DNA of 64,000 nt from an uncultured Candidatus Rokubacteria bacterium (lineage in GTDB: Bacteria; Methylomirabilota; Methylomirabilia; Rokubacteriales; CSP1-6): contig CAWBMV010000037.1 of the NCBI GenBank assembly GCA_963789955.1, positions 416,001 through 480,000 of the forward strand. The letters are read 5' to 3'. The position numbers and the translations under genes were made by a program. Of this stretch, positions 28,266-38,799 are shown piece by piece. The number at the start of each line of letters is the position of its first letter. Positions within the stretch are counted from its first letter, which is position 1. The notes beneath the pieces are model-generated. The model searched no databases and was not told the DNA's origin. It worked only from the letters and a program-made list of their open reading frames with translations.

Positions 28266-29317
28266 ATGGTCGTGGAGTTCGGGTTCTCGCTTCCGGGTCG
28301 CGGGCCGCTGGCCAGCATCGACGTCGTTCTGAAGCTCGCCGAGAAAGCCGACGCGCTGCGGTTCGATTCGCTGTTCGTCACCGACCACGTCGTCATGCCC
28401 GTCGCCTCGGCGCAAGTCGGTCTATCCGTACACCGCGAGCGGCCAGTTTCCCGGCGGGCTCGCGCAGGACTACCTCGAGCCGCTGGCGACCCTGGCCCAC
28501 CTCGCGCACGCGACCAAGCGGGCCCGGCTCGGCATCAGCGTGCTCGTCGTTCCGTATCGCAACCCGCTGCTCCAGGCCAAGATGCTCGCGACCATCGACG
28601 TGCTCTCCAAGGGCCGCGTCATCCTGGGCGCCGGCGTCGGCTGGCTCCGCGAGGAGTTCGAGGCGCTCGGCGCGCCGCCGTTCGAGGAGCGCGGGCGCGT
28701 GACCGAGGACTACATCAAGCTGATGCGCGCCGACGTGGACGACCGATCCGGTCAGCTACGAGGGCAAGCACTACTCGGTCCGCGACGTCCACGTGCTGCC
28801 CAAGCCGGTGCAGCGCGGCGGCATTCCCGTGTGGATCGGCGGCCACAGCGGCGCGGCCGTCCGGCGCGCCGGCACCATCGGCGACGGCTGGCATCCGATC
28901 GCGATGCGACCGCCGGCGATGCTCGGGCCCGACGAGTACGGCGCGAAGGTCAAGGAGCTCCACGACTGGGCGCGCCGGCCGGGTCGCGACCCGAAGGCGA
29001 TCACGCTCACCATTCGCGTCCCGATGGACGTGCGCGCGCGCAACGCCAAGCCCGCGACCGGCGACCGGCCGCCGTTCCAGGGCACCGCGGACGAGATCGT
29101 CGCCGATATCCGCCGCTACCAGGCGCTCGGCGTCTCGCACTTCGTCTTCGACCACACCGTGCAGGAGCTCCGCGCGGTCCTCGCGAACATGGAGCGCTTC
29201 GCGAGCGACGTGCGGCCGAAGCTCTCGCGCGCCGCCGGCGGCCGCACCGCCGCCGCGTCGTCTCGTGCCGGGTCGAAGACGCCTCCGAAGAAGAAGGCCG
29301 CGAAGCGACGCGCATGA
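28266..29317 (+). CDS. LLM-class (probably F420-dependent) oxidoreductase, two frameshifts
   Basis: [46 protein letters not shown]...P.WIGG, GDGW. Confidence 0.85.
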
Positions 29318-30457
29318 TCTCGCATCAGGACGCGTGCGCGCTCATCGACGCGCCGGCGGCGGCGCTGGACGAGCTGCTGGTCCGGGCCGGCGAGCTGCGC
29401 GACCGCGGGCGCGGGCGCACCGTGACCTTCTCGGCCAAGGTGTTCGTGCCGCTGACGACCCTGTGCCGTGACTACTGCGGCTACTGCACGTTTCGCCGCG
29501 ATCCGGGCGAGCCCGGCGCCCACACGATGGAGCCGGACGAGGTCGTGGCCCTCGCGCAGGCCGGAGCGCGACTGGGCGCCAAGGAAGCGCTGTTCTCGCT
29601 CGGCGACAAGCCGGAGGCGGCGTTCGCCAGTCATCGCGACGTTCCTGCGCCGTCACGGCCACCGCACGACACTCTCGTACCTGCGCGCGGTGTGCGCGGC
29701 GGTCCTCGCGGAGTCGTCGCTCCTGCCCCACGCCAACCCGGGGCTGATGGGCGAGCGCGATCTGGCGGCGCTGCGCGAGGTGAACGTGAGCATGGGCATC
29801 ATGCTCGAGACGGTGTCGGAGCGGCTGCTGGCGCGCGGCATGGCGCACGACCGCGCGCCGGACAAGATCCCGGCGCGGCGGCTGCGGACGATCGCGCTGG
29901 CCGGGAAGCTCGGCATCCCGTTCACGACCGGCCTCCTGATCGGCATCGGCGAGACGCGCCGCGAGCGCGTGGACACACTCGTCGCCATCCGCGACCTGCA
30001 CGAGAAGCACGGCCACATCCAGGAGGTCATCGTCCAGAACTTCCGCGCCAAGCCGCGGATCCCGATGCGCGATGCCGCCGAGCCCTCGCTCGAGGACCTC
30101 CTGTGGACGCTCGCGGTGGCGCGGCTCGTGCTCGGCCCGGACGTGAACATCCAGGCGCCGCCGAACCTCTCGCCCGACGTCTATCCCCGGCTCCTGGCGG
30201 CGGGCCTCAACGACTGGGGCGGCATCTCACCGCTGACCCTCGATCACATCAACCCAGAGAAACCGTGGCCGCTGATCCCCGAGCTCCGGCGCGCGACCGA
30301 GAGCCAGGGCTTCGTCCTGCGCGAGCGTCTCGCGATCTATCCGGAGTTCGCGACGCGCGCCGAGTACCTGGACGAAAGCCTGCGCGCGCGCGTCCAGGCC
30401 CAGGTCGACGAGCGCGGTCTCGTCAAGGAATCCCATGAACGCTGGCGTCGCTGGTAG
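29314..30457 (+). CDS. cofG: FO synthase subunit CofG, frameshift near 29640
   Basis: KVFVPLTTLCRDYCGYCTF radical-SAM motif, LLPHANPG, FTTGLLIGIGET, IQEVIVQNF, NDWGGISP. Confidence 0.93.
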
Positions 30458-31700
30458 CGTGCTCGGTTCGCTCGACTGGGTCTCGCGCGATCTTCGCCCG
30501 ATCCTCACCCGGGCCCTCGACGGCCACGAGGTGTCGATCGAGGACGGCATCGCGCTCACCGGCGCCGAAGGGCGCGACTTCCACGCGCTGACCCTGGTCG
30601 CCGACGAGCTGCGCCAGCGACAGGCCGGCGACGTCGTGACGTACGTCGTGAATCGCAACGTCAACTTCACGAACGTCTGCATCAAGCACTGCACCTTCTG
30701 CGCGTTCAGCCGCGACCACCGCGAGGAGGAGGGCTACTTCCTCCCGGTCGCGGAGGTCGTGCGGCGCGCCCAGGAAGCGCGCGACCTCGGCGCCACCGAG
30801 GTGTGCATCCAGGCGGGGCTGCCGCCGAAGCTCGACGGGCGCTACTACATCGACCTCGCGCGCGCGATCACGACGGCGCTGCCGGAGCTGCACATCCACG
30901 CGTTCTCGCCGGAGGAAGTGCTGTACGGCTCGGTACGCTCCGGGCTGCCGATCCGCGAGTACCTGAGCGAGCTCAAGGCCGCGGGGCTCGGCACCCTGCC
31001 CGGCACGTCGGCGGAGATCCTCGACCAGGCGATCCGCGACGTCATCGCGCGCGGCCGGATCACCGTCGAGCAGTGGGTCGACGTGATCACGACCGCGCAC
31101 GCGCTCGGCATCCGGACGACCTCCACGATCATGTACGGCCACGTGGAGACGCCGGCTCACTGGATCCGTCACATGGCGCTGCTGCGCTCGATCCAGAAGG
31201 ACACCGGCGGCTTCACCGAGTTCGTGCCGCTCTCGCTCATCCACTCGGAAGCGCCGATGTACTCGAAGGGGCTCGTCCCCGGCGTGCGGCCCGGCGCCAC
31301 CGGCGCCGAGGTCATCAAGATGCACGCGCTCGCCCGCCTGATGCTCGGCGCGACGTTCCGCAACATCCAGTCCTCCTGGGTCAAGGAAGGACCGAAGCTC
31401 GCCCAGCTGCTGCTCGGCGCGGGCGCCAACGACCTCGGCGGCACCCTGATCAACGAGTCGATCTCCACGTCGGCCGGCGCGCAGTACGGTCAGCTCGTCG
31501 GGCCCGCCGAGCTGCATCGACTGATCCGCGACGTCGGGCGCGTGCCCGCGCAGCGCGACACGCTGTACGGGCTCATTCGAACCTATAGAGACGGCGAAAA
31601 CCCCGATTCACCCCTGGACAAGGTCGACGACGCGGAGGCGCGCTTCGGCTCGTATCGCCGATTGATCGCTTCGGGAGAGTTCCGCTTCACGCGCGGCTAG
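30435..31700 (+). CDS. cofH: FO synthase subunit CofH
   Basis: VTYVVNRNVNFTNVC...C.FCAF, PGTSAEIL, TGGFTEFVPL, NIQSSWVKEG, GANDLGGTLINESIS. Confidence 0.93.
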   Translation: MNAGVAGSVLGSLDWVSRDLRPILTRALDGHEVSIEDGIALTGAEGRDFHALTLVADELRQRQAGDVVTYVVNRNVNFTNVCIKHCTFCAFSRDHREEEGYFLPVAEVVRRAQEARDLGATEVCIQAGLPPKLDGRYYIDLARAITTALPELHIHAFSPEEVLYGSVRSGLPIREYLSELKAAGLGTLPGTSAEILDQAIRDVIARGRITVEQWVDVITTAHALGIRTTSTIMYGHVETPAHWIRHMALLRSIQKDTGGFTEFVPLSLIHSEAPMYSKGLVPGVRPGATGAEVIKMHALARLMLGATFRNIQSSWVKEGPKLAQLLLGAGANDLGGTLINESISTSAGAQYGQLVGPAELHRLIRDVGRVPAQRDTLYGLIRTYRDGENPDSPLDKVDDAEARFGSYRRLIASGEFRFTRG

Positions 31701-31775
31701 CCGCGCGGGTAGGCCTGTGGTAATAATGCAGTTCGCGTTCAATCACCACTATCCTCGATCGACAGGAGGTCACCT

Positions 31776-32069
31776 GTGCCGAAGACGATGACGAAGTCTG
31801 CGACGGTCGCGTACCTTGCGGAGAAGACCAGCCTCACCCGGAAGCAGATCGAGGGTATCCTCGACGAGACGCTCAACCTCGCCTCCAAGGAAGCGAAGAA
31901 GAGCGGCGTGTTCCTCCTGCCGGGCTTCGGGAAGCTGGTGCTCGCGAACCGCAAGGCACGGATCGGACGCAACCCGCAGACCGGCGAGCCGATCAAGATC
32001 CCGGCCAAGCGCGTCTGCAAGTTCCGTCTCGCCAAGAGCCTGAAGGACGCGGTGCTTGGCAAGAAGTAG
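31776..32069 (+). CDS. HU-family DNA-binding protein
   Basis: LPGFGKL, RKARIGRNPQTGEPIKIPAK; AGGAGG SD. Confidence 0.95.
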   Translation: MPKTMTKSATVAYLAEKTSLTRKQIEGILDETLNLASKEAKKSGVFLLPGFGKLVLANRKARIGRNPQTGEPIKIPAKRVCKFRLAKSLKDAVLGKK

Positions 32070-32595
32070 GACTGGACATCGCGCGGGGGGCGCTCGGCCC
32101 GCCGCTGCCCCAGCTCCCTCACTCGCGTCTGCGACCGTTCCGCGGGTCTGGCAGGGAATCGGATACCGGCCCCTGCCGGACGCCGCGATGGCCCGCCCGC
32201 TCTTCGATTTCGCCGCGGTCTCCTGGCCCCCCACCGACGACATCGCCGTCGCGTGGGGCGCCACGGATGGCGGTCAGCGTCTCATCGGCGCCGTGATCGG
32301 AGAGCGGAGCGGTCAGGCCATGCTGCTGCACGGACCCGTGGTCACTGTCGAGACCGATCCACTCGAAATCGCCTCGCAGCTCGTTGCCGCCGTCCTCGAT
32401 CACGCCGCGGCTTCCGGCGTGGTCACCATCTTCGCGCGACCGCAGAGCCTCGATCGGGTCTGGGTGCGCTTCGGCTTCATCCCGGTGCCCGAAGGCACGT
32501 TGCCTCCCGATCTCGCGGGTCGGCCCGGGAGCGGTCTCTACGCCTGGCGTGGCGGCACCGCGTTGTGGACGCTTCGCGAACACCTTCGCGACTGA
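32056..32595 (+). CDS. Hypothetical protein with degenerate GNAT-like fold; start uncertain
   Basis: LIGAV..E..G..MLLH..VV....IASQLV..VLDHA...G...IF....W.RFGF.PV resembles GNAT motifs. Confidence 0.5.
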   Translation: MARSRTGHRAGGARPAAAPAPSLASATVPRVWQGIGYRPLPDAAMARPLFDFAAVSWPPTDDIAVAWGATDGGQRLIGAVIGERSGQAMLLHGPVVTVETDPLEIASQLVAAVLDHAAASGVVTIFARPQSLDRVWVRFGFIPVPEGTLPPDLAGRPGSGLYAWRGGTALWTLREHLRD

Positions 32596-32596
32596 C

Positions 32597-33534
<938 letters not shown>

Positions 33535-33538
<4 letters not shown>

Positions 33539-34431
33539 GGAACGGCGCCGGGTCACGCCTCGTCGTCGCCGTGCCGGTCAAGGACCTGACCCACGCCAAG
33601 CAGCGGCTGATGGGCGCGCTCTCGGTCGCCGAGCGCGGCGAGCTGGCGCGGGCGATGCTGCGCGACGTGCTCCGCGCGCTCGCGGCCGCCGACCTCGACG
33701 GCGTGTGGGTCATCACGCGCGACCCCGCGGCCACGGCCATCGCGCGCGGGCTCGGCGCCGAGGCCGTCTCGGAAGCGGAGAACCGCGGCCATACGGCAGC
33801 GGTCGCGCTCGCCCAGGCCGAGGCCGTCCGCCGAGGCGCGCGCATCTTCGTGACGGTGCCGGGCGACGTGCCGTGTGTCACCGCCGACGAGCTGAGAGCG
33901 CTCGCCGACGGCGTGCGAGAGGGCGCGCCGATCTTCGTGCCCTCGCGCTCCGGTCTCGGCACCAACGGCGTCGCGCTGGCGCCGCCCGACGCGATGGCGC
34001 TGACGTTCGGCGAGCCGTCCTTCGCGCGCCACCTCGAGACGGCGCGCGCCCGCGGCCTCACGCCGCGCGTGCTCACCTTGCCGGGACTCGGGCTCGACGT
34101 CGACTCGCCGGAGGACCTCGCGACGCTCCTGGCCGAGCGCAGCGCCACCGAGACTCACCAGCTCGTCTCCGCCTGGCGCCGCGCCCCCAACCTCGTGCGC
34201 CTCCGACAGATGAACCACGCGTCGCCGGGCTCGCGTCTGTCTCAGGCCTCGCGCACCACGGGGCCCGCAAACGCCAAGCCGGACGTCGGCCGACGCGATG
34301 AATACACCGTGCGGAGCCACGCCGCTCCTATCTCAGGCCACCCTCGGTCAAGCCGGCCTCGAGGACCTCGCTACAATGACTCGCTACGAGGTGATCGGCG
34401 TCGCAGGCATCGGCGAGGTGCGGCCTGGTGA
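33535..34431 (+). CDS. cofC: Guanylyltransferase CofC (FbiD); homology ends near 34180 and the C-terminus runs through a repeat element
   Basis: VPVKDL..AKQRL, AMLRDVL, PGDVP, GTN, FG..SF.RH, LDVDSPEDL. Confidence 0.92.
34185..34378 (+). repeat. Copy of the dispersed repeat family at the cofC-cofE junction; left end approximate
   Basis: ccacggggcccgcaaacgccaagccgg...ctatctcaggccaccctcggtc..cctcgagg..cgctacaATG is the reverse complement of the 21870-22257 unit. Confidence 0.9.
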
Positions 34432-35125
34432 CGACATCGCGCAGCTCATCGTCGAGGCGGCCGCGCGTCAGGCGACGCCCGTCCTGTCCGGCGATCTGCT
34501 CGTGATCGGCCAGAAGATCGTGTCGAAGGCCGAGGGCCGGCTCGTGAAGCTCGCGGACGTGCAGCCCTCGCCGATCGCGCTGGCGATGGCACCCGGGCTC
34601 GCCAAGGATCCGCGCCTGGTCGAGGTGATCCTCGCCGAATCGCGCCGCGTCGTCCGCATGGACAAAGGCGTCCTCATCACCGAGACCCATCACGGCTGGA
34701 TCTGCGCCAACGCCGGCATCGATCAGTCGAACGTCGACGCGGATTCGGTCGCGCTCCTGCCCGAGGATTCCGACCGCTCGGCGCGAGCGGTGCGGGATCG
34801 CGTGCGCGCGCTCCTCGGTGTCGACGTGTTCGTGATCGTCACCGACACGTTCGGCCGGCCCTGGCGCGAGGGGTTGACCAACGTGGCCATCGGCATCGCC
34901 GGATTCGCGCCGCTCCTGAGCTACCTCGGCGAGCGCGATCCGGCCGGCCGCCCGCTGCAAGCCACCATCCTGGCGCTCGCCGACGAGCTCGCCGGCGCGG
35001 CGGAGCCGGTCATGGGCAAGCTCGACCGCATTCCGGCCGCGATCGTGCGCGGGCTCGCGCTCAGGCCGAGCGAGGAAGGCTCGAAACCGCTCCTGCGCGA
35101 GCCGGCGCGCGATCTCTTTCGCTGA
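34376..35125 (+). CDS. cofE: F420-0:L-glutamate ligase CofE (no C-terminal nitroreductase domain)
   Basis: GEVRPGDD, KIVSKAEGR, ANAGIDQSN, TDTFGRPWREG, DELA, RDLFR. Confidence 0.95.
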   Translation: MTRYEVIGVAGIGEVRPGDDIAQLIVEAAARQATPVLSGDLLVIGQKIVSKAEGRLVKLADVQPSPIALAMAPGLAKDPRLVEVILAESRRVVRMDKGVLITETHHGWICANAGIDQSNVDADSVALLPEDSDRSARAVRDRVRALLGVDVFVIVTDTFGRPWREGLTNVAIGIAGFAPLLSYLGERDPAGRPLQATILALADELAGAAEPVMGKLDRIPAAIVRGLALRPSEEGSKPLLREPARDLFR

Positions 35126-35136
35126 ACGGTGAGGCC

Positions 35137-35782
35137 ATGAACATCGCGATTCTCGGGGGAACGGGCAAAGAAGGGGCCGGGCTGGGCACACGCTGGGCGC
35201 TGCTCGGCCATTCGATCATCATCGGCTCGCGCGACGCCGAGCGGGCGAAAGCCAAGGCCGCCGAGCTCCGCGAGCAGACGCAGAAGCTCCCGATCATGGG
35301 CGAGTCCAACGCCGAGGCGGCACGCCTGGGCTCCGTGATCGTCGTCGCGCTGCCGGCGACGGGGCTCGCGGCCACGCTCCCCGAGGTGCGGGACGGCTGC
35401 CGCGGCAAGGTCGTCATCTCGCACGGTCGTGCCGCTCACGTTCGGCGGCCCGCGCCTTTTCACGCCGCCGCCGGCGGGGTCGTCGGCGGAGGAAGCGCAG
35501 GCGCTCCTGCCCGACGCCAAGGTCGTCGCGGCCTTCCACCACATCGCCGCCCACGAGCTGTCCGAGACCGAGCACGCGATCGAGTGCGATCTGCTCCTCT
35601 GCGGTGGTGACGCCTCCGCCAAGGAAGTCGTCGGTGAGCTGGGGCGCTCGATGGGGCTCCGGCCGATCGACGTCGGCGGGCTCAGCAACGCCGGACCGCT
35701 CGAGGGCATCACCGCGGTCCTCGCCACGATCAACCGGCGCTACAAGCTGAAGAACTCCGGCATCAAGATCACCGGCCTCTGA
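35137..35782 (+). CDS. npdG: NADPH-dependent F420 reductase, frameshift near 35420
   Basis: IAILGGTGKEGAGL..RW, IGSR..ERA, S.AEEAQ, VVAAFH, L.NA..LE.IT.VL..IN. Confidence 0.9.
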
Positions 35783-35798: not shown

Positions 35799-36255
35799 TC
35801 AGGCGCGAGAGACGGCGAGCCCGAGGTAGACGATCACGACCGCGAGCAGCAGCACGACGCGATCCATCCACGCGATCGCCGAGAGCGCCGGGCTCGGATC
35901 GTCGCCGGCGGCCACCGCGCGCGTCAGACGCGGCACCTGCGCGAAATCACGCTGACCGGCGACCGCGACCGCCGCGAGCACGAGCATGAACTTGAGCGCC
36001 AGCAGGAGCGCGGCGCCGCTCTGCAGCACGCGATCGAGCGGGCCGAGCAGGGTCACGTTGTAGAGCCCGGTCAGCACCACCAGGGCGACCGCCGACCCAT
36101 GTGACGCGCCGGCCGCGGCGCAGCATCTCGGCCAGCGGCGTGCCGCTGTTCCGCCGAGCCGCGGGCATGACCACGTGAGCCTGATACATGAGCCCGCCGA
36201 TCCACACCACGACGCCCAGCAGATGGAGCCACACCGAGACGAGCGACGTCGTCAC
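35799..36255 (-). CDS. CopD/DUF4149-like membrane protein, frameshifted
   Basis: WLHLLGVVVWIGGL; LVVLTGLYN; LALKFMLV; four TM segments. Confidence 0.6.
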
Positions 36256-36944
36256 GAGGCCCCGTCGGCCAGGCGCGCCACCACGCGCTCGACGTCCGCG
36301 AGATTGCTGAAGAGCACGTCGGGGCGGTGCCCCGCCAGCTCCTCGACCGGGTACTGACCCGTCGCGACCGCGACGGCCACCGCGCCGCAGCCGCGGGCGC
36401 ACGCGATGTCCAGCGGGGTGTCGCCGATGATCGTGACGCGATCGAACGTGAACTCGTGACCGAGGGCGCGCGCCCGCTCGCGCGCGATCGCGGGCAGGCG
36501 CAGCCGGTCGGCGTCGTCGCCGCCGTAGGCGGCCACGCGGAAGAACGGCCAGAGACCGGTCGGCTCGAGCTTGATGCGGGCTCCGGCTTCGATGTTCCCG
36601 GTCAAGAGCCCGACGACCGCGTCCGGCCGCGCGCCGAGCCGCCGGACCACCTCCGCGACGCCGGGCAAGACCTGGATCCGAGAGCCGTCGCCGATGATCC
36701 GCGTGAGCTCGCGCGCGTAGGCCTGGAAGCACGCGTCGACGCGCGCACGAATCCGCTCGCCGTCCAGGCCGGCGTCGGTCATCAGCTCGTGGACGATGCT
36801 CAGGTCGGTCCGCCCGCGGAAATCGTAGCGCTCGATCGTGCCGGCGGTGCCGTACGTTTCCTCGAGCGCGCGCGCGAACGCGGTGCGGCCGGCGCCGCGC
36901 ACGCTCACGAGCGTGCCGTCGATGTCGAACAGGAAGAGCCGCAC
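36252..36944 (-). CDS. HAD-family hydrolase/phosphatase
   Basis: LFDIDGTL, GRTD, LLTGN, IGDTPLDI. Confidence 0.9.
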   Translation of the reverse strand: MRLFLFDIDGTLVSVRGAGRTAFARALEETYGTAGTIERYDFRGRTDLSIVHELMTDAGLDGERIRARVDACFQAYARELTRIIGDGSRIQVLPGVAEVVRRLGARPDAVVGLLTGNIEAGARIKLEPTGLWPFFRVAAYGGDDADRLRLPAIARERARALGHEFTFDRVTIIGDTPLDIACARGCGAVAVAVATGQYPVEELAGHRPDVLFSNLADVERVVARLADGAS

Positions 36945-36945
36945 G

Positions 36946-38154
36946 CTATTGGGACGCGAGGCGGCGGAGGCGGGTGACCACCGCGGGCACCGCATCGAGC
37001 ACGAGGTCGATCTCGCTCGCCGTGGTCCAGCGGCCGAGCGTGAAGCACAGCGAGCCCTCGGCCGTGTCACGGTCGCAGCCGATCGCCCGCAGCACATGCG
37101 ACGGCTCGCCGGTCATGGCCGTGCAGGCCGCGCCCGACGAGGCGGCCACGCCGCGAAGATCGAGATCGGTCAAGGCGCTCTCGGCCTTCACGCCGGGCAC
37201 GACGATCGACGCATGCTGCGGGAGCCGATCCGCGCCGCGGGCGCCGGTCAGGCGAGCGTCCGGAATGCGCGCGAGCAATCCGGCGAGCAGTCGATCACGC
37301 AGCTCGCCGAGCCGCGCCACTTCGCTCGCGACCTCGACCCGCGCCAGGTCGGCCGCGACGCCCATCCCGGCGATCGCCGGCAGGTTCTCGGTGCCGGCGC
37401 GATAGCCGCGCTCCTGTCCGCCGCCCACCGTGAGCGGCGCGAGCTTGACCGACGCGCGCGCCCAGAGGGCGCCGGCGCCCGGCGGCCCGTAGAGATCGTT
37501 CGACGAGAGCGTGAGCAGGTCGATGCGGCAGTCGTCGACGAGGAGCGGGACGCGTCCGGCGGCGCCCACCGCGTCGACGTGGAACGGCACGCCGCGCGCG
37601 CGCGCGATGCGGCCGATCTCGCGAACGGGCTGGATCGTGCCGATCTCGTTGTTCGCCGCCATGACCGAGACGAGCGCCGTCTCGTCGCGGATCGCGTTCG
37701 CCACCGCCTCCGGGTCGATGCGGCCGTCGGCGTCCACGCCCACGTAGGTGACGCTCCAGCCGCGCTTCTCGAGGTCGCGACACGAATCGATCAGCGAGAT
37801 GTGCTCGATCGCTGAGGTGACGATGTGCCGGCCGGCGGCCCGCTGGGCCAGTCCCTTGACGGCGAGGTTGTTCGCCTCGGTGGCGCTGGCGGTGAAGATC
37901 ACGCCGCCGGGTGTCGCGGCGAAGAGCCGCGCGACCTTGGCCCGGGCTCCGTCCAGGGTCGAGCGGGCTTCGAGCCCCAGCGAGTGCTGGGCGTTCGGAT
38001 TGCCGACGCCCCCCTCGAAGAACGGCCGCATGACCGCCACCACGCGGGGATCGACCGGGGAGAAGCCCGCGTAGTCGAGGTAGACGCGGGCCCCCGCGGA
38101 GGGGAGCCCGGTTCTAGCGAGCCTTTCGGACGAAGAAGCGGAAGACCGCGCCAT
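36946..38154 (-). CDS. IscS/NifS-like class V aminotransferase-fold protein with Asp in place of the PLP lysine
   Basis: YLDYA, FTASATEANN, ANNEIGTIQP, GGQERG.RAGTEN and SSGAACT conserved; SxHK replaced by SSND. Confidence 0.9.
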   Translation of the reverse strand: MARSSASSSERLARTGLPSAGARVYLDYAGFSPVDPRVVAVMRPFFEGGVGNPNAQHSLGLEARSTLDGARAKVARLFAATPGGVIFTASATEANNLAVKGLAQRAAGRHIVTSAIEHISLIDSCRDLEKRGWSVTYVGVDADGRIDPEAVANAIRDETALVSVMAANNEIGTIQPVREIGRIARARGVPFHVDAVGAAGRVPLLVDDCRIDLLTLSSNDLYGPPGAGALWARASVKLAPLTVGGGQERGYRAGTENLPAIAGMGVAADLARVEVASEVARLGELRDRLLAGLLARIPDARLTGARGADRLPQHASIVVPGVKAESALTDLDLRGVAASSGAACTAMTGEPSHVLRAIGCDRDTAEGSLCFTLGRWTTASEIDLVLDAVPAVVTRLRRLASQ

Positions 38155-38350
38155 TTCTCTGCATCTCCAAGAGCTCGTTGCCGGTTCGCATCGACCAGCT
38201 CTTCATGTCCGCCTCGGAGCCGGGATCGTCCGACGTGACCTCCAGCACCTGGCCCGGATCCATGTGCTTGAGCGCCTCGCGCGTCTTGACGATCGGCATC
38301 GGGCAAAAGAGCCCGAGGCAATCGAGCGTCTTGTCGGCAACGACGGGCAT
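38114..38350 (-). CDS. tusA: Sulfur carrier protein TusA/SirA family
   Basis: LDCLGLFCPMPIVKT, GQVLEVTSDDPGS..D. Confidence 0.9.
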   Translation of the reverse strand: MPVVADKTLDCLGLFCPMPIVKTREALKHMDPGQVLEVTSDDPGSEADMKSWSMRTGNELLEMQRNGAVFRFFVRKAR

Positions 38351-38799
38351 ATGGGCTATTTCCTTGAAAATTCTGACATCGACCGTGGTGCTCACGCAAT
38401 CTTTCCTGCCGAGGTTAGCACAGGCCTCGAATCGGCCGCTCGCAATGCCCGTTCTCCTGTGGGGACTGCTCGTCCACGGGCCGGTCCCCTCCGCTATACT
38501 CCGTGGCCTCCGGCCGCGGCACCCGCAGGTTGCCGCCCGCGGGGACATCAGGTTCACGGCAATCTGCGCGCCCGGCTCCGGAGCAACCACGCTCGGGTCC
38601 ACGGGTGTCGTTGAAGGCCCGCCGAGCCTACGAGAGGCGGGGCCGATAGACTGGGTGTCATGAAGCGTCGTCCTGCATGTCGCAGGGTATACGACGGACG
38701 TTGCCACGGTCGTCGGCTGGAGCCGACCGCTGCTACCCTGAGGCTCATGCTGTCGCGCGCGACGAGAGGTCTGCGCCCGCCTTCCACTGCCCACGGCCC

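Follow-up and report, generated by a model that had tools for sequence, protein, structure and literature searches.

A lysine-less homolog of the cysteine desulfurase IscS, encoded together with the sulfur carrier TusA, proved to be a conserved feature of Rokubacteriales. The pair lies in a 64-kb stretch of an uncultured Candidatus Rokubacteria bacterium (positions 416001-480000 of its contig C37, hereafter the window), where tusA (38114-38350; Pfam TusA, E 3e-24), encoding 78 residues with a CPMP motif, is followed by an open reading frame whose translation is a 402-residue IscS homolog (36946-38154), here called IscS*; all coordinates of this cassette refer to the reverse strand. In IscS* the SxHK motif, which holds the Schiff-base lysine for pyridoxal 5'-phosphate (PLP), reads SSND, and we call the variant SxND wherever it occurs. 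We favor, at slightly better than even confidence, the reading that IscS* is catalytically inactive and carries persulfide, exchanging sulfur with its dedicated TusA. New here are the family-wide form with TusA as the only partner gene, its altered IscU-facing surface, and a second dead IscS in the same genomes.

IscS* has the class V aminotransferase fold (Pfam PF00266, E 3.7e-67) of fold-type I with a long cysteine loop. Its AlphaFold model reached a predicted local distance difference test (pLDDT) of 93.8, the loop bearing Cys344 being the least confident part (block pLDDT 64), and in Foldseek it matched the Archaeoglobus fulgidus structure 4HVK with a template modeling (TM) score of 0.94 and a root-mean-square deviation of 1.2 Å, and IscS/NFS1 structures with TM scores of 0.93-0.96. 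IscS and NifS profile models matched the protein and every curated cut-off was missed, as in the NCBIfam equivalogs TIGR03402 (418.8, below 530.75) and TIGR02006 (355.9, below 643.2). Equivalent residues are given below in Escherichia coli IscS numbering, taken from a fetched E. coli-like IscS (L268) that agrees at W45, E49, D52, R55, R220, R237, E309, C328, and E347 with PMC2854127.

In an alignment whose groups were defined by the motif itself, positions 205-206 were Asn-Asp in 30/30 Rokubacteriales and 61/61 other SxND rows and His-Lys in 155/155 control rows; in IscS* they correspond to Asn219-Asp220 of LSSNDLYGP (37495-37500), with the GAT codon of Asp220, which takes the place of the PLP Schiff-base lysine, at 37495-37497. 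The Gln183 of the DAxQ motif, present in 97% of the controls, is Gly in 100% of the Rokubacteriales rows (Gly197 of DAVG, residues 194-197; codon 37564-37566) and Ala in 97% of the other SxND rows. Arg354, the anchor of the substrate carboxylate, occurs in 99% of the controls and is Cys, Ala, Val, Leu, or Glu in the SxND rows, the IscS* residue being Cys370 (37045-37047). Thr12/Thr13 were also lost in SxND proteins, and Asn155 was variable. His104 (His118 of IscS*), Asp180, Thr76, and Cys328 were kept in all SxND rows, with Thr243 as Thr or Ser, and the cofactor-cradle residues His118, Asp194, Thr92, Ser217, and Thr255 are all present in IscS*. Since the mobile-loop Cys328 (Cys344 in the motif SSGAACT, 37123-37125) was retained in 100% of both SxND groups, we infer that it is functional.

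The catalytic set described as strictly conserved comprises Lys, Arg, His, and Cys, with Arg binding the substrate carboxylate (PMC8918507). With Lys206 and Arg354 both lost, IscS* is therefore predicted to lack cysteine desulfurase activity, and it should be unable either to form the PLP-lysine aldimine or to anchor cysteine. Judging from the residues kept, its cofactor cradle is probably still occupied. The A. fulgidus IscS, with Asp199, binds pyridoxamine 5'-phosphate (PMP) and has no desulfurase activity, and its D199K variant still holds PMP (PMC8918507); by analogy, PMP is probably retained in IscS* as a structural ligand. A first-pass annotation of this DNA had read the three motifs SSND, DAVG, and SSGAACT and placed the Asp codon exactly, and the A. 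fulgidus properties that it cited agree with 4EB5, which carries the same SSND, and with the review just cited. Its proposal of an A. fulgidus-type pseudo-desulfurase likewise stands as a prediction, with Lys and Arg lost and no lysine seen to have moved into the pocket; the change of Arg354 to Cys370 was absent from it and came from the alignment.

The motif was conserved across the lineage. Asn-Asp occurred in all 120 homologs listed (113 by regular expression and seven in variant spellings) and in 30/30 top loci from 40 relatives, with both Asn and both Asp codons in use, and this conservation rules out a sequencing error. The median ratio of nonsynonymous to synonymous substitution rates (dN/dS) of iscS* was 0.146 over 14 genes of the genus (91 pairs). 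In a phylum survey using an even sample of 120 genomes, the exact SxND pattern was detected in 60/78 host-family genomes, 5/8 genomes of a sister family, and 0/34 genomes from other orders. Protein searches recovered an orthologue in 15 of the 18 pattern-negative family genomes, Asn-Asp being seen in 14, so that the gene is present in 75/78 family genomes; together with the low dN/dS, this rules out pseudogene decay. In the three remaining genomes (G055, G017, and G118; 89-94% complete) iscS* and the cognate tusA were both missing, and this joint absence indicates that the two genes are inherited together. The survey of neighborhoods and phylogeny that had been proposed as a check therefore found SSND conserved among orthologues and not decaying, with a single truncated exception, described below.

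In a FastTree phylogeny of 303 sequences (midpoint root; 28 near-duplicate loci left out), the SxND proteins grouped in a single clade (98 tips, support 0.998) that contains a Geoglobus protein and three tips with other spellings of the motif; the A. fulgidus sequence itself is absent from this tree. The Rokubacteriales proteins are a clade within it (33 tips, support 1.0) whose sister relationship had a support of 0.03. IscS* is accordingly a member of a broad clade of archaeal and bacterial proteins, and its earlier framing as a bacterial oddity falls. We also observed that proteins with other residues at the lysine site (NQ, QQ, QG, RS, HT, HR, HL, and GR) group together as sister to the SxND clade (support 0.958), and the loss of the lysine may be older and broader than SxND.

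Scanning GTDB genomes for the SxND motif yielded at least 120 stretches; of the 120 analyzed, 118 encode IscS and 78 came with flanks; L062 and L118 matched the pattern in their DNA, are not IscS, and were dropped. These stretches derive from Bathyarchaeia, Asgard archaea, Thermoplasmata, Hadarchaea, Methanosarcinales, Geoglobus, and several bacterial phyla. Profile searches in flanks of at least 900 bp placed tusA directly upstream at 10/10 Rokubacteria and 55/59 other SxND loci, totaling 65/69, and it held the same position at 28/28 loci of the relatives. As controls we used lysine-bearing IscS genes from metagenomes (77 of 80 loci usable), which had tusA upstream in 0/51 and anywhere in 0/77, with iscU downstream in 29/61; the TusA profile in this comparison derives from SxND-linked proteins, the controls belong to another collection, probably represent other taxa, and are not taxon-matched, and kin are not independent. 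The TusA pairing that the first-pass annotation had seen at one locus is thereby a strong, lineage-wide association. Outside Rokubacteria a DsrE-family gene (Pfam) with a conserved Cys lay directly upstream of iscS* at 39/59 loci, mostly between tusA and iscS*, and iscU lay downstream at 49/64 loci, so that the usual cassette of the wide archaeal and bacterial SxND clade is tusA-(dsrE)-iscS*-iscU. Among 40 SxND-linked TusA proteins, C16, D41, D42, and D48 were invariant; in the window the codon of Cys16 (CPMP) is at 38303-38305, and Asp42 and Asp48 correspond to Asp45 and Asp51 of E. coli TusA.

Our literature search, which covered neither supplements nor the primary A. fulgidus papers, found no paper linking a lysine-less IscS to TusA or DsrE or reporting a Rokubacteria case, and the available portion of a 2026 review (PMC13066941) makes no mention of such a link. 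Two further observations concern the wider cassettes. In Geoglobus, thiI lies directly upstream of tusA-iscS*-iscU (L119:1999-3129) and is a candidate alternative sulfur acceptor. Cassettes of anaerobes (L065, L073, L082, L099, L116, and L120) often have genes for rubrerythrin, desulfoferrodoxin, flavodiiron, and ferritin-like proteins in their flanks, a hint that these cassettes might act in repair following oxidative stress.

The Rokubacteriales form departs from this layout in that neither dsrE nor iscU was found beside iscS* (0/10 and 0/28 loci). The 64-kb window holds no iscU, and the two NifU_N matches of the genome lie at C6:181240 and C37:60053. The end of tusA overlaps the start of iscS* by 41 nucleotides, and no alternative in-frame start of iscS* was found before its conserved YLDY strand. 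Downstream follows a gene for a HAD-family phosphatase (36252-36944, reverse strand), which is probably co-transcribed with the cassette; it occupied this place in 29/30 relatives, the 30th lying at a contig edge, and at 9/10 GTDB Rokubacteria loci (exception L049), and was not seen beside SxND genes outside Rokubacteriales. Its only close solved structure, 2HCF, is uncharacterized by name. A gene for a CopD-like membrane protein comes next (35799-36255, reverse strand), with a frameshift near 36092 in the assembly; this gene order, including the tusA overlap and the missing iscU, is as the first-pass annotation had described it.

The surface that would meet IscU has changed as well. E. coli IscU touches IscS at helix 309-316 and at the C-terminal helix, and IscS without residues 376-404 no longer binds it (PMC2854127). 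Position 309, at the start of the IscU-contact helix, is Lys in 30/30 Rokubacteriales rows (Lys323 of IscS*, 37186-37188) and Glu in 61/61 other SxND rows, a change specific to Rokubacteriales. The C-terminus of IscS* stops before the IscU-binding helix. By a loose test, the Ser-Pro tail was present at 46/49 loci with iscU; it was absent from 112/113 close homologs of IscS* and from 22/30 relatives, two of the 22 being frameshifted. We found no evidence for the suggested role of IscS* as an iron-sulfur (Fe-S) scaffold with TusA.

The remaining sulfur genes of the host genome bear on where TusA might obtain its sulfur. Contig C6 carries an iscR-iscS-iscU-iscA-hscBA-fdx-iscX operon, then DsrE-like genes and a third IscS gene beside cysE (names assigned from the translations, or by Pfam where it was applied). 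The isc-operon IscS (G000:C6:180008-180846, L031; loci L165-L194) reads TAHL and EQR, i.e., Lys206Leu and His104Gln, and keeps Arg354, Gln183, Cys328, and the full IscU surface. Its H-L/M pattern was detected in 74/78 family genomes and 0/42 others, its dN/dS was 0.091, and it formed a separate clade among ISC-type proteins (support 0.971), which points to a second, independent inactivation. In one genus of the sister family, the isc-operon IscS reads EQR and DATEA with the lysine kept, a possible intermediate state. The sole normal type I IscS of the host is the third gene (C6:185997-187130), 44% identical to IscS*, and a His-Lys IscS motif was found in 76/78 family genomes. Three small, divergent DsrE/F/H-like genes lie between iscX and the His-Lys IscS gene, a cysE-like gene following (G000:C6:185041-187130; L031:13042-15155; also L034 and L036). 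The genome further encodes MnmA, YeeE, a SufS-like/SufU pair, and five DsrE-family matches; at 87% completeness it gave no match to SufBD or to DsrC/TusE, and the classic TusBCDE relay is incomplete in it. A separate three-gene run (G000:C22:190042-191925; L032:6043-7926) consists of a second tusA-like gene, a dsrE, and a gene for a fusion of an N-terminal TusA domain with a cobalamin-independent methionine-synthase catalytic domain.

Among characterized systems, IscS* is closest to A. fulgidus IscS2-IscU (4EB5, 4EB7, 4HVK; D199K variant 4R5F), with which it shares SSND in place of SxHK, the missing Gln of DAxQ, the loop cysteine, 43-44% identity, and TM scores of 0.94-0.96; the ssndiygp of 4EB5 aligns at the same place, and the same clade includes the Geoglobus SxND gene, which is accompanied by tusA and iscU. 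By these features IscS* is an IscS-fold protein of the known A. fulgidus lysine-less type. Unlike IscS2, it has no adjacent iscU, carries Glu309Lys, ends short of the IscU-binding helix, and is followed by the HAD and CopD-like genes, in a host that also has one normal type I IscS and another, independently inactivated IscS. Methanosarcina acetivorans IscS1 (MA0808)-IscU1 also lacks the catalytic lysine and has active paralogs in the same genome (PMC7585200). The E. coli IscS-TusA complex (3LVJ/3LVK) joins the same two families, and the equivalents of the TusA CPxP cysteine, Asp45, Asp51, and Arg27 and of IscS Arg55 and Asp52 are kept here, TusA Arg31 being Lys; in contrast to IscS*, E. coli IscS is catalytically active with PLP and serves as the sulfur donor of TusA, and the normal iscS controls had no adjacent tusA (0/51). 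The DsrE/TusA relays of sulfur oxidizers (Metallosphaera cuprina; sHdr) resemble the wider SxND clade in their tusA-dsrE pairing and in DsrE-to-TusA transfer, which is directional in vitro (PMC4175335, PMC11094781); they differ in feeding the sHdr oxidation complex and not an IscS homolog, and the Rokubacteriales locus has no dsrE.

These comparisons outline how a persulfide carrier might work. In E. coli, TusA docks on one IscS subunit, with its Cys19 within 4.5 Å of Cys328 of the other, and IscU is served in cis (PMC2854127). An IscS* homodimer would bind TusA in roughly the same way, so that the TusA cysteine faces the loop cysteine of the second subunit. Sulfane sulfur would pass between TusA Cys16 and IscS* Cys344; the likeliest direction is toward IscS*, opposite to that in E. 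coli, because IscS* could not make its own persulfide. For the ancestral cassette, the chain would run DsrE to TusA to IscS* to IscU, and the relay from TusA through IscS* to IscU is the simplest, because an inactive IscS whose loop cysteine is invariant sits between tusA-dsrE and iscU. In Rokubacteriales, the cassette would have lost dsrE and iscU, and the surface that contacts IscU would have drifted; TusA would receive its sulfur in trans, either from the normal type I IscS or from proteins encoded elsewhere that belong to the DsrE family or handle thiosulfate, with Cys344 as the relay or store for another acceptor.

Several observations weigh against this proposal, the unmatched control loci described above among them. 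Of the E. coli residues at the interface, IscS* has replaced Trp45 by Leu, Glu49 by Ser, and Arg220 by Ala, TusA has Arg for Phe58, and Asp52, kept in IscS*, occurs in just 43% of the Rokubacteriales rows; in E. coli, W45R, E49A, D52A, and TusA F58A each abolish IscS-TusA binding (PMC2854127), and therefore either the interface has been remodeled or the genes are linked without direct binding. The direction from TusA to IscS* is assumed, the cassette contains no DsrE, and the proposal names no acceptor. The loss of IscU contact is also less clear-cut than the tail suggests: 8/30 relatives keep Ser-Pro, several IscU-linked SxND proteins also end just past it, and the single E. coli IscS changes E311R, D346R, L386R, and M389R did not stop IscU binding. 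Cassettes without iscU occur in some Thermoplasmata and bacteria as well. One relative (G029) keeps tusA and the HAD gene around a 128-residue N-terminal remnant of iscS* (L361:1802-2188), which is one clear case of loss by deletion.

Among the alternatives to a persulfide carrier, the one that survives best, which we still judge unlikely, is a heterodimer of IscS* with the normal type I IscS, the dead subunit docking TusA and the loop cysteine of the active subunit loading it in trans. TusA does accept sulfur in trans across the E. coli IscS dimer (PMC2854127), 76/78 family genomes have the His-Lys motif, and position 45 of the active IscS is occupied by Arg, the substitution for Trp with which E. 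coli IscS no longer binds TusA; the invariance of Cys344 is left unexplained, however, and the two proteins are only 44% identical. Each of five non-Rokubacteria SxND genomes tested also held a lysine-bearing desulfurase-like gene (5/5), so that cysteine independence is not supported as an established property, and in 2/5 these were SufS-like paralogs alone. The heterodimer raised in the first-pass annotation may exist, but the clade does not need it.

Quite improbable, too, is a role like that proposed for A. fulgidus, the type member (PMC8918507), in which IscS* would bind the isc-operon IscU in trans with Cys344 as a [2Fe-2S] ligand, TusA feeding IscS*. It would fit the iscU in the cassettes of 49/64 other loci and a host that has IscU, gave no SufBD match, and carries a lysine-less isc-operon IscS, and the four tolerated E. 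coli changes and the eight relatives with Ser-Pro speak for it. Against it stand the absence of iscU from the Rokubacteriales loci, Glu309Lys in 30/30 rows, and a C-terminus ending before the helix in the region required for IscU binding in E. coli; moreover, the isc-operon IscS, with its full IscU surface, is the obvious partner of IscU.

We consider it very unlikely that IscS* is a PMP/PLP enzyme or B6-binding protein of new chemistry with the HAD phosphatase as its partner, for example in handling B6 phosphates. Lysine-less PMP enzymes exist, the cradle residues are invariant, PMP is bound in the A. fulgidus structures, and the HAD gene is tightly linked in Rokubacteriales; yet no non-Rokubacteria SxND locus has that gene, nor does the Rokubacteria locus L049, its close structural match 2HCF offers only an uncharacterized name, and TusA and Cys344 are left unexplained. 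The chances are equally slim for a regulator or buffer that, by sequestering TusA or by sensing sulfane sulfur with Cys344, directs sulfur among Fe-S clusters, molybdopterin, and tRNA thiolation without net transfer: the tusA pairing, the lost IscU link, and strong purifying selection fit it equally well, and TusA and IscU compete on E. coli IscS (PMC11302665), but the protein has no regulatory domain and the ancestral cassette is biosynthetic in layout. Finally, an active desulfurase using a relocated lysine, or a decaying pseudogene, is hardly credible: Lys323, Lys73, and Lys130 are conserved in Rokubacteriales and one relative has a truncated copy, but column mapping puts none of the five lysines of IscS* (73, 100, 130, 237, and 323) at a pocket position, Lys323 being Glu309 on the IscU-contact helix and Lys73, Lys130, and Lys237 aligning next to Arg55, at about Arg116, and near Arg223, in the surface partner-binding region (PMC2854127), Arg354 is lost too, A. 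fulgidus D199K still binds PMP, and dN/dS and the presence in 75/78 genomes oppose decay.

Further features of the window surround the cassette. An F420 biosynthesis cluster on the forward strand (28266-35782) converges on it, comprising genes for an LLM oxidoreductase, cofG/cofH-like radical SAM proteins, HU, cofD, cofC, cofE, and npdG (cofE and npdG by NCBIfam, the remaining names from translations), and this linkage persists in many relatives. The CopD-like gene (35799-36255), npdG (35137-35782), and the isc-operon iscS (G000:C6:180391-180445) contain frameshifts in the assembly and are intact in relatives, the CopD-like gene with 151 residues; a contig from an RNA run lacks one base at 36092, and the pattern suggests indel errors of the assembly. 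Upstream of tusA, the extended -10-like element TGTGCTAACCT (38412-38422, reverse strand) is common to 6/37 upstream regions, and a conserved TGTCAATGTCAGAATT block lies nearer the tusA start (38357-38381), which on the opposite strand in relatives shows TTGACA and a TAGAAT-like -10 and is probably the promoter of a divergent GGDEF gene; the scan for promoters and terminators gave nothing exceeding chance. Contigs from four RNA-labeled runs (four studies) overlap parts of tusA, iscS*, and the HAD gene in 27, 16, 27, and 15 of 30 bins and never 38427-38700; they come from related strains, lack a DNA or silent-region control, and are not proof of transcription.

A 2022 review leaves open by what means a desulfurase-inactive IscS contributes to Fe-S assembly, what the origin of its sulfur is, and why PMP is bound (PMC8918507). 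The near-invariable tusA neighbor offers a testable answer, and the Rokubacteriales form, as a minimal two-gene version without DsrE and IscU, provides a clean system for transfer from TusA to IscS* and for discovering further functions of such proteins. More tentatively, and with the odds against it, Rokubacteriales may have split sulfur mobilization from delivery over three IscS proteins, an active one loading TusA and two dead ones serving as persulfide adaptors; in this scheme, and with the same reserve, the isc-operon copy (His104Gln, Lys206Leu/Met) would deliver to IscU and the SSND copy would relay TusA sulfur to a different acceptor. If the three-IscS scheme is true, reverse transfer from TusA to IscS would be a general mechanism, the sulfur source of A. 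fulgidus-type IscS would be answered, and IscS-fold pseudoenzymes would constitute a class of re-targetable sulfur adaptors. For the lineage itself, with two of the three type I IscS genes predicted to be inactive, automatic annotation overcounts cysteine desulfurases in an abundant group of soil bacteria.

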